DNA of 64,000 nt, taken from contig JBHLMG010000001.1 in assembly GCA_048938385.1 (NCBI GenBank), positions 256,001 to 320,000 on the forward strand, written 5' to 3'. The stretch is from Promethearchaeota archaeon (GTDB lineage: Archaea > Asgardarchaeota > Hermodarchaeia > Hermodarchaeales > Hermodarchaeaceae). The notes beneath the pieces were generated by a model, which did no database searches, was not told the origin of the DNA, and saw nothing but the letters and a program-made list of their open reading frames with translations. Below are positions 54,975 to 56,781 of the stretch, one piece after another. The position numbers were made by a program, and so were the translations under genes. Numbering within the stretch: position 1 is the first letter of the stretch; every line of letters starts with the position of its first letter.

Positions 54975-55574
54975 ATGCCCCAACTTAGGAGTTTTACAAC
55001 CACATCCATTGGGCTCCTCGCTGGGATCACAGCGTCCGTGCTGGTGTACCTTACTCACTTTAAAATCCTTTACTCGATGGTATACTCGACATATTTCGGT
55101 TTAATCAATTCACTACAGTTCTATGAAGTAGCATGGATCCTCGCTACCTTTGATTTTCTTCTCAATCTCATGAACCCTTTTTCCTTCTTTTTGTGGGTCT
55201 TAATGGCCTTCCTTTTTGCTCTGATTCTTCGAAATATGAATGCGACATTGACAGTTCTTGCTATCGCTGTGCTTCTACCAGCAGGAACATGGCTCCTCTT
55301 CGCGGTGAAATACGCGGTTTTTCTCGGATTCACGCCCCCGCTTCTCTTTGCGCTCTTTCTCTGTCGGCTTCTCTTCCCCTTGGCTCTCGTTACGACTCTG
55401 GCTTCATTAACTACGCTGCCCTTCTGGATGATTCAACGACGACAGGGCGCCTCGGTAGAAACATCGAGGGTTGTGCAGTTTGCCTGTTCTAGTTGTGGCG
55501 CTAAGTACCGCTCTAAGCCATTGATATGTGTTGAGTGTGGGCGGGAAGGAGTGATCTATGCGGACCAGGAGTAA
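54975..55574 (+). CDS. Membrane protein with a C-terminal zinc ribbon
   Basis: Several TMs, then CSSC...CVEC. Confidence 0.72.
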   Translation: MPQLRSFTTTSIGLLAGITASVLVYLTHFKILYSMVYSTYFGLINSLQFYEVAWILATFDFLLNLMNPFSFFLWVLMAFLFALILRNMNATLTVLAIAVLLPAGTWLLFAVKYAVFLGFTPPLLFALFLCRLLFPLALVTTLASLTTLPFWMIQRRQGASVETSRVVQFACSSCGAKYRSKPLICVECGREGVIYADQE

Positions 55575-55648
55575 ATCCTGCTGAAACCTAAACGATGATT
55601 ACTAGAATCGCAAAAAAATAGCCGTTTCATTGAGAAAAACATAAAGAC

Positions 55649-55654
55649 TTATAA
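55649..55654 (+). promoter_or_regulatory. TATA box (TTATAA) of the candidate ncRNA
   Basis: Purine-rich upstream flank; about 23 nt before the 5' end of the closing stem. Confidence 0.55.
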
Positions 55655-55677
55655 TTTACATTCATGATTATACAATA

Positions 55678-55810
55678 GCCGGTTTGGGGCAGTGGCACAA
55701 TTTTAAAAAGACGCTCGATGCTCCTCATAGGCAGAATCCTCCCAAAAAAACCTCAGGCCTAAGTCGTCCTCGCCCTCCAAAATCCCTCCTCCCTCAACTG
55801 CCCTTCCGGC
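55678..55810 (+). ncRNA. Candidate small RNA: closing stem plus a loop carrying eight CCUC motifs
   Basis: 5' GCCGG..GGGGCAGT pairs with 3' ACTGCCCT..CCGGC; TATA upstream; T-tract downstream. Confidence 0.6.
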
Positions 55811-55811
55811 A

Positions 55812-55822
55812 TTATTTTTTTT
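55812..55822 (+). terminator. Oligo-T archaeal terminator
   Basis: TTATTTTTTTT immediately after the closing stem. Confidence 0.6.
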
Positions 55823-55875
55823 GATCTCATGCAGAATGAATTGACAAGATAGCACTAGATTGGATTATCTCGATT

Positions 55876-56781
55876 TCATGCCGGTGCGGCTAGGATGGCG
55901 TTTGAAATCGCGAATTCCAATACCTCTACAATCGCGTATTCAGGAAGCCCCAGGAGGAAAGCGATAGTTTTTACATCTCGTTTTCCATCTACCAGAAAAA
56001 GAACATCGCGTGCGTAAGGACCGAATTTATCAAAGAGGGCACTTCCTACTGGAGATCCCTTATCGAGAGCGGCAAGAAGGTTATTACTTCCTTCAGGGAC
56101 GAAAGAGAGGTTAATTTGGCCTTCGGGCGTGGCTGGTGGGGGTAGAGGTGGAGCTGTAGCTTCAAGAGTTTCTAAGGGTGGGGGTTCCAGGGGTGGAGGT
56201 TCTAACGGTGGAGGGAGTTGGTCTTCAGGTATAGCAGTAACTGGTTCTGGAGGCGGGGTTGGTATGATATCGGGCTGGGTAGCGGGAGGGGGTGTTGGTC
56301 TAGGTGTTGGAGTTGGCTCAGTTGTAGGTTGTGGTATTGGAATAGGCTGTGGGGGAGGTGTTGCTGGAGGAGCTGGCTCTTGAGGTTGTGGGCTTGGAGT
56401 GGGTGTAGCCGGAGGGGTTGGAGTTGGTCGGGCAGGTGCAGCAGGCATAGTCTTTAAGATATTAAGGTCAAGTTCACGAAGAGCCAAAAGGGTGGCTTTG
56501 GTTTTCACTACGGCAATTCCCAGTGAGAGGTTGGGAGGAAAAAGTACTGCGAGTAGCCAGTTGTTGGCAATTTTGGAAATCACAACTAATCCCTGTTCGG
56601 TATTCACAGTAAGTTGGCTGATTTGTCCTTGGTAAAGACTCACCGTTTGTTTTACCATGGCCTCAGTTGTCGGGTCTAGGGTACTTTGATAGACGATATT
56701 GTCAGGTGACAAAATACAGAAAGCTTTGACCATGCGATCAAAACGAAGGTTATCAAGAGCCCGCTGGACATCCTCTACCAT
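55876..56781 (-). CDS. Roadblock-like domain + polyproline linker + C-terminal winged-helix domain
   Basis: N-terminal 'ISQLTVNTEQGLVVISKI...LLAVL.PPNLSLG'; ~100-aa P/T-rich linker; 'VDGKRDVKTIA' wHTH. Confidence 0.7.
   Translation of the reverse strand: MVEDVQRALDNLRFDRMVKAFCILSPDNIVYQSTLDPTTEAMVKQTVSLYQGQISQLTVNTEQGLVVISKIANNWLLAVLFPPNLSLGIAVVKTKATLLALRELDLNILKTMPAAPARPTPTPPATPTPSPQPQEPAPPATPPPQPIPIPQPTTEPTPTPRPTPPPATQPDIIPTPPPEPVTAIPEDQLPPPLEPPPLEPPPLETLEATAPPLPPPATPEGQINLSFVPEGSNNLLAALDKGSPVGSALFDKFGPYARDVLFLVDGKRDVKTIAFLLGLPEYAIVEVLEFAISNAILAAPA

Follow-up and report, generated by a model that had tools for sequence, protein, structure and literature searches.

What is encoded between two convergent genes at positions 55649–55822 of this archaeal DNA, and what could a small RNA crowded with CCUC motifs do for its host? 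An earlier note had proposed a stand-alone small RNA that displays eight such anti-Shine-Dalgarno (anti-SD) motifs and that might mask ribosome-binding sites globally or act as a sponge for a CU-binding protein. To our knowledge almost nothing is known about the regulatory RNAs of Asgard archaea, because nearly all of these organisms are uncultured. Positions given below are those of the window, by which we mean the whole 64-kb stretch of DNA that was analysed.

Our comparative analysis indicates that the stretch in all likelihood encodes a stable non-coding RNA of ∼135–145 nt. Very probably this gene is uncatalogued so far and, among the genomes searched, is found only in Hermodarchaeota; a literature search returned no description of a Hermodarchaeal CCUC-rich RNA. 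Comparative data could hardly give the RNA better support, as it is single-copy, family-wide and above its protein-coding neighbours in conservation; its content is unusual, comprising the densest cluster of anti-SD cores in the genome. Even with an ordinary function it would be a new RNA family and a candidate for Rfam, and its gene would make a handy marker for Hermodarchaeota.

Genomes and alignments

The window lies on contig C23 of a metagenome-assembled genome of 2.48 Mb that is 89.8% complete. The Hermodarchaeota set comprised 19 genomes of two genera, 72–91% complete. ARAGORN found only 15 tRNA genes in the 2.48 Mb of the source genome, from which 16S rRNA is also absent; this is due to incomplete assembly, to many intron-bearing tRNAs, or to both. 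Among relatives, a same-genus 16S rRNA gene (L053; G006:C71:619-4212, − strand) spans ∼3.6 kb against a model of 1478 positions and carries large insertions (introns or expansions), and a copy from the second genus (L052) measures 1543 nt.

Pairing statistics were calculated for a hand-defined structure on covariance-model (R1) alignments of 21 distinct sequences. Register shifts in plain MAFFT alignments kept RNAalifold from recovering the terminal stem.

Distribution, synteny and conservation

The covariance model finds exactly one copy per genome in all 19 Hermodarchaeota genomes (the copy of G005 is cut by a contig end), and has no match at E ≤ 0.01 in 132 genomes from 26 other Asgard families. 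BLAST located the stretch in 14/14 other genomes of the same genus, at 75–90% identity, and recovered only its 3′ half in four genomes of the second genus. Three more variants were reached in metagenome contigs by way of the neighbouring protein; one of these represents a third, more divergent lineage (61.5 bits, the copy in the window scoring 143.7 bits).

Gene order is identical in 19/19 genomes: geranylgeranyl reductase, a membrane protein, a Zn-ribbon membrane protein and the RNA are followed by opposite-strand genes for a Roadblock-like protein and Glu/Gln-tRNA synthetase. The genes that flank the RNA are convergent, at 54975–55574 (+) and 55876–56781 (−). Within the genus the RNA is 75–82% identical at the nucleotide level, compared with 43–51% amino acid identity for the adjacent membrane protein. 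Mean pairwise identity within the genus is 0.78 inside the predicted limits of the RNA, 0.57 at −60 to −1, 0.50 farther upstream and 0.26 past the T-run, and since it drops at both edges the conserved unit coincides with the predicted transcript.

For the 301-aa protein encoded by the convergent gene at 55876–56781 (−), no Pfam family is matched even when E is relaxed to 5. A Roadblock/LC7-like fold is predicted for the first ∼115 residues (Atlas TM 0.78 against a Robl_LC7 cluster), after which come a proline-rich linker and a highly conserved C-terminal domain. The protein is present in all 19 Hermodarchaeota genomes, and two to three clustered paralogues are present in 26/26 genomes of another Asgard family (probably Thorarchaeota by Atlas rows).

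Predicted promoter, terminator and extent of the transcript

The predicted RNA extends from 55678 to 55822 (+) and consists of a 133-nt body (55678–55810), a 4-nt spacer and a U tail. A TATA box, TTATAA (55649–55654, +), is centred ∼27 nt 5′ of the first base of the closing stem, and a TATA-like hexamer occupies the same alignment column in all orthologues; an A/T-rich proximal element lies immediately 5′ of the predicted RNA start. Conservation ends at a U8 tract (55815–55822, +), a predicted archaeal terminator, and all orthologues have 4–8 T 3′ of the stem. Such a distance from TATA box to start, and such an oligo-T end, are usual for archaeal promoters and terminators. The small stand-alone transcription unit that had been proposed between the convergent genes is thereby supported, with its own TATA box, an oligo-T end and limits of conservation that match the predicted transcript. 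The coordinates in the earlier note, for TTATAA, for both halves of the stem, for the T8 tract and for the ATG of a 14-codon ORF at 55718, are all correct.

Two further motifs lie upstream on the + strand. ATCGCAA (55607–55613, ∼−70) is retained by most genomes of genus 1 and by the divergent metagenome lineage (L058). The other, TTGAGAAAA (55630–55638, ∼−45), reads TTGCGAAAA in the second genus; it is conserved and is possibly a regulator site. It has no match upstream of tRNA genes in its own genome, and only one other place there combines it with a similarly spaced TATA box. That place (contig C31, ∼102215–102360, +, outside the window) precedes C/D-box-like elements (ATGATGC ... CTGA ... 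ATGATGA ... CTGA) with spacers exceeding the usual lengths in archaeal guide RNAs; another small RNA gene, under a related promoter, may lie there.

Closing stem and inner hairpins

The terminal stem has 5 bp, a small internal loop (2–3 nt on the 5′ strand, 0–1 on the 3′ strand) and then 7–8 bp. Its outer helix, P1, pairs GCCGG (55678–55682, +) with CCGGC (55806–55810); 96% of cells are paired among the 21 sequences, and the helix is almost invariant and so offers no covariation. The inner helix, P2, pairs GGGGCAGU (GGGGCAGT; 55686–55693, +) with ACTGCCCT (55797–55804), with 92% of cells paired; a single U separates the two 3′ strands, which together occupy 55797–55810 (+).

Six of the eight P2 pairs are counted by the tool as having changes on both sides, three of them from two register-shifted rows only. 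Clear compensations are a G-C to A-U change in one genome and a G-C to U-A change in one metagenome variant; the innermost P2 pair is C-G, U-A or A-U among orthologues. In 10 sequences P2 begins with a G·U as its outermost pair, and several C-to-U changes in an inner hairpin retain U·G pairs. Such pairs fit the + strand only, because the other strand would show A·C mismatches. Overall, 90% of stem cells pair in the 21 distinct sequences of the model-based alignment, against 37–51% when the partners are slid by one to three columns, and neither the paired share nor the covariation score was reached by any of 500 shuffles. Alignment of the syntenic interval among relatives, which the earlier note had suggested as a check, thus shows stem covariation (in P2) as well as retention of the CCUC motifs.

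Whole-molecule folding energy is not better than that of shuffles on either strand (z about −1; −1.0 on the + strand). A G-poor interior (8 G in 74 nt) that is predicted to be open makes an unremarkable total energy understandable; as modelled, the closing stem is the only solid structure in this species and the interior is essentially unstructured.

Most species have in addition an inner hairpin CCUCC-CAA-GGAGG, stacked on AGG/CCU, and in the second genus this is compensated to UCCCU-loop-AGGGA. Here an A7 tract (55744–55750, +) replaces the GGAGG of relatives, and the CCUCC-loop-GGAGG hairpin is lost. The A tract is found in independent contigs from two studies, in one of them with a single G, so the loss of GGAGG is real and not an assembly error.

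Two other pairings were rejected. A hairpin CGAG/CUCG, with 86% of cells paired, has no pair with changes on both sides and hence no covariation backing, and pairing of an internal GGCAG with the 3′ CUGCC is made less likely by one variant that alters both P2 strands and leaves the internal copy unchanged. The 5′ third of the RNA in the second genus (L016–L019) holds an extra 7-bp hairpin, CCUAUAU/AUAUAGG, that has no equivalent in genus 1; one of its A-U pairs is U-A in one genome, a compensated change, and the hairpin sequesters part of the otherwise single-stranded AUAGGCAGAAU block.

CCUC content and conserved blocks

The stem encloses ∼110 nt that are G-poor, C/U-rich and, as predicted, mostly unpaired; closing stem, pyrimidine-rich interior and U tail are all present as had been described. 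CCTC starts at 55723, 55738, 55751, 55768, 55774, 55785, 55788 and 55792, i.e. eight times within 73 nt at irregular spacings of 15, 13, 17, 6, 11, 3 and 4 nt, and those at 55738, 55774, 55785 and 55788 extend to CCTCC, which confirms both the count and the positions first reported. The next-best 73-nt span on either strand of the window holds four CCTC. Genome-wide, on both strands, no second 80-nt span has eight, and the only denser repeats are GAGGAA-type coding repeats, i.e. repeats of GAGG. The count exceeds that of 500/500 mononucleotide and 500/500 dinucleotide shuffles of the RNA.

Orthologues have 4–9 CCUC motifs, typically 7–8. For 20 of the 21 the count is above that of both mononucleotide and dinucleotide shuffles (the remaining one reaches p = 0.056 against dinucleotide shuffles), and partition-function folds predict most of the motifs to be unpaired. 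With eight exposed motifs this species is close to the upper limit of the range among orthologues, since in most relatives one CCUCC is paired with the internal GGAGG.

The motifs lie among conserved blocks on the + strand. Beside the stem is a single-stranded AAUUUUAAA (55699–55707; consensus RRUUUURRA), nearly invariant in alignments. Block 1, CUCCUC-AUAGGCAGAAU-CCUCC (55721–55742), contains two CCUC motifs; its AUAGGCAGAAUCC is identical in 16/21 sequences and its GAAU core is invariant across three lineages. Block 2, AGUCGUCCUCGCCCUCC (55762–55778), also contains two, and its UCGUCCU is invariant in 21/21. Block 3, a CU block AUCCCUCCUCCCUC (55782–55795), has three overlapping CCUC motifs predicted to be 77–95% unpaired and is conserved in genus 1; genus 2 has a longer, non-alignable and equally CCUC-rich segment in its place, and in the third lineage the block is shorter. 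Two to three of the motifs sit within a longer repeat, AAUCC(C)UCC, that is one position from the 16S tail AUCACCUCC.

Between the genera the segment from the invariant UCGUCCUC to the 3′ stem strand is unalignable and yet equally rich in CCUC. Selection thus seems, on this sequence comparison, to act on motif content (count) rather than on a fixed sequence, as display of multiple motifs would predict. At the same time, the conserved blocks of 13–17 nt differ little or not at all among the three lineages, and this holds also for their non-CU bases without a partner in the model.

Known RNA families

Rfam 15 gives no match at gathering thresholds in the whole 64-kb window. A permissive scan (E up to 10) of 55500–55950 yielded five matches, at 10–15 bits against thresholds of 33–60, one of which (10.5 bits) overlaps the RNA; that no known family could be recognized, as the earlier note had it, agrees with this check. 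No box pairs of a C/D or H/ACA guide RNA were read in the sequence. The bases 3′ of the stem vary (AUUA, AUCA, AACA, UCUA), the asymmetric stem loop is without the tandem G·A signature of a K-turn, and a bulge-helix-bulge is absent, the loop being 2–3 nt (5′) and 0–1 nt (3′) and followed by 7–8 bp. Complementarity to 16S rRNA of two relatives is no better than that of shuffles.

Several assignments were discarded. The predicted RNA falls well below the size of SRP or RNase P RNA. Membership in CsrB/RsmZ is excluded by reading, the motif being CCUC and not GGA. The C-rich anti-SD sRNA families (RsaE/RoxS, LhrC, csRNA) give no Rfam match, so that the RNA could at most be their analogue.

Shine-Dalgarno context and target searches

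The 16S rRNA of two relatives ends in ...GAUCACCUCCU, with CCUCCU. Genome-wide, the pentamers most enriched 8–14 nt before starts are GGAGG, AGGTG and GGTGA, giving an SD consensus GGAGGUGA of which GGUGA is the commoner half in this genome; GGAG or GAGG occurs at 8–14 nt before the start in 24% of long ORFs, against 7% in a control region. The premise of an anti-SD reading therefore holds: given this tail and this enrichment, CCUC is the anti-SD core of an SD-using organism. No motif in the window, nor any consensus motif of the relatives, reaches the full 16S tail UCACCUCC.

Exact 10-mer complements of the RNA number 600 in the genome, inside the range of shuffled controls (325–685). Target energies from RNAduplex are meaningless here because it allows long looped duplexes. 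Three complement sites near predicted start codons were inspected: one belongs to a 257-aa ORF (C1:7872-8642) that is species-specific and absent from 18/18 relatives, one falls within a C25 peptidase gene, 10 codons into its longest ORF, and the third is at a 509-aa ORF without a Pfam family. A stretch of 12 nt at C51:8685 that matches the most conserved block is in no same-strand ORF of at least 40 aa.

Unusually G-rich stretches dense in GAGG are present on C1 (1547–1994), C7 (∼890) and C45 (1280–1576), each less than 2 kb from a contig end, and may relate to foreign DNA. The 257-aa ORF sits on one of these contigs.

Possible functions

The reading that we tentatively put first is that of a trans-acting RNA whose exposed CCUC(C) motifs would pair with GGAGG SD sites of mRNAs, and in doing so compete with the 30S subunit. 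Several motifs might provide avidity, or allow one RNA to hold several sites; in most species the internal GGAGG would mask one CCUCC motif. The stem and U tail would protect the RNA ends, and AAUUUUAAA with the U tail might serve to recruit SmAP (Sm-like) proteins, in the manner of the Hfq-binding modules of bacterial sRNAs. We infer such Sm-like binding from the resemblance of AAUUUUAAA to an Sm/Lsm site; when the consensus RRUUUURRA is set against an RAU(4-6)GR-like Sm site, only a few orthologues have the G that eukaryotic sites contain. The genome has three LSM-domain genes and also KH-domain genes; Hermodarchaeal SmAP genes lie at C5:26275-26466 and C23:115319-115513. Of the protein partners named in the earlier note, Lsm-domain proteins are encoded and Ro60/TROVE (below) was not found. 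The in-molecule CCUCC/GGAGG hairpin, compensated between genera, indicates that CCUCC-GGAGG pairing is used.

Other results weaken this anti-SD reading. The invariant blocks (AUAGGCAGAAU, AGUCGU) extend beyond CCUC, and generic SD pairing needs less than that. The absence of the full UCACCUCC, the lack of over-representation of 10-mer complements, 16S rRNA complementarity at chance level, the position of the C25 peptidase site inside its ORF and the non-conservation of the target that was followed up point the same way. An abundant RNA that paired with every SD would moreover be unspecific, and abundant ncRNAs are described in PMC5028192 as usually avoiding such pairing.

These points favour a protein sponge or scaffold, a possible reading that we consider about equally likely. 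CCUC or AAUCC(C)UCC, together with the invariant blocks, would then be sites for one or more RNA-binding proteins that are titrated or assembled according to the logic of CsrB/RsmZ and CsrA; the ligand could be, for example, a KH-type binder of C/U-rich RNA or a factor whose usual target is the 3′ tail of 16S rRNA. Sponge RNAs are built in this way, with a short motif repeated along an unstructured region that a stem closes, and blocks of 13–17 nt kept nearly identical across three lineages suit recognition by a protein better than SD pairing over 4–5 nt. The lack of excess complementary sites genome-wide, the similarity of the AAUCC(C)UCC repeat to the tail AUCACCUCC and the KH- and LSM-domain genes fit as well. 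However, no candidate partner emerges from the locus, since the neighbours are membrane Zn-ribbon and Roadblock-like proteins without a known RNA-binding domain, the motif spacing is irregular, and much of the 3′ CU block is missing in the third lineage.

A combined form, which we regard as rather improbable, is a multivalent mimic of the 16S 3′ tail with about seven anti-SD cores, loaded with Sm-like protein, that would set the availability of SD-led mRNAs or titrate a factor reading the 16S tail in small-subunit maturation or initiation. If true, this would be a kind of translation-control RNP undescribed in archaea, in a lineage close to the eukaryotic stem. More generally, an RNA that competed for SD sites, or titrated a binder of the 16S tail, would be a simple global regulator of translation, of a kind not yet shown in archaea.

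The arrangement that is invariant in all 19 genomes raises a role bound to the locus, which we think very unlikely: the RNA might arise by processing when transcription of the upstream membrane-protein mRNA reads through, or act as antisense to the 3′ end of the Roadblock-like mRNA. There is indeed no T-run from the upstream stop (55574) to the RNA, and none on the − strand from the convergent stop (55876) to the RNA gene, so the Roadblock-like mRNA may run into it. Yet the RNA is preceded, at a fitting distance, by a conserved TATA box of its own, and no segment is less conserved than the spacer towards the convergent gene (0.26 identity). Relatives of the neighbouring Roadblock-like gene in the other Asgard family have no analogous RNA beside them, and as the whole gene block is syntenic the linkage need not be functional.

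It is hardly credible that the locus is something other than an RNA gene, be it a short coding sequence for a protein or DNA conserved for another reason, for example as a terminator region or as a site to which a protein binds. ORFs of 14, 46 and 50 codons do overlap it, but the ATG of the 14-codon ORF is absent in relatives, which removes the possibility raised earlier that this ORF is the sole conserved element, and indels of 1, 2 and 5 nt in and between the conserved blocks break every reading frame; compensatory and G·U changes preserve the stem, and the promoter and T-run bound the conservation.

The likeness to Y RNAs that the earlier note had drawn, and that the end-to-end closing stem with its 2–3/0–1-nt internal loop, CU-rich interior and U tail do bring to mind, would make Ro60 (TROVE) the bound protein. 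This reading can for practical purposes be set aside, because TROVE/Ro60 (PF05731) is found in 0/19 Hermodarchaeota genomes by a search that detected the Deinococcus and Bacteroides controls, no Y_RNA match came up when Rfam models were run permissively on the locus (E up to 10), and a tRNA-like module is absent.

Comparison with known systems

C-rich small RNAs that target SD sites are known from bacteria, namely RsaE/RoxS of Firmicutes, LhrC of Listeria and the cia-dependent csRNAs of Streptococcus; they pair with SD sites and thereby compete with the 30S subunit. Like these, the Hermodarchaeal RNA is a small stand-alone RNA that ends in a terminator U tail and carries redundant C/U-rich anti-SD motifs, predicted to be unpaired and complementary to the SD GGAGGUGA of its host. 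Unlike these, it has an archaeal promoter and host and shows no similarity to them in sequence or by covariance model. It has 4–9 motifs where they have 2–3, and displays them in one long, unstructured stretch closed by a stem whereas theirs are in hairpin loops.

CsrB and RsmZ are protein-sponging RNAs with many GGA motifs in hairpin loops and CsrA as partner. The Hermodarchaeal RNA shares with them a short motif that recurs many times in unpaired RNA, a feature suggestive of ligand titration, but its motif is CCUC and not GGA, and its display is mostly a linear single strand instead of hairpin loops; we know of no CsrA-type partner in archaea. Y RNAs (Rfam RF00019) and bacterial Y-RNA-like RNAs likewise have a terminal stem, a pyrimidine-rich internal region and a U tail. 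The resemblance is superficial only, as the 19 genomes lack a Ro60/TROVE gene and the RNA has neither a model match nor a tRNA-like domain.

Among archaea the nearest comparison is sRNA162 of Methanosarcina mazei (PMC3510493), also an intergenic sRNA proposed to pair with 5′ regions of mRNAs. The two are unrelated in sequence, and the generic anti-SD core repeated in the Hermodarchaeal RNA, which is known here from genomes alone of an uncultured group, differs from the specific, extended target sites of the sRNA162 type (PMC3510493).

The last likeness is to the 3′ tail of 16S rRNA. The Hermodarchaeal RNA is a separate small RNA and the full UCACCUCC is in none of the window's motifs, but it has the same core, CCUCC, and its AAUCC(C)UCC repeat is a single position off AUCACCUCC.
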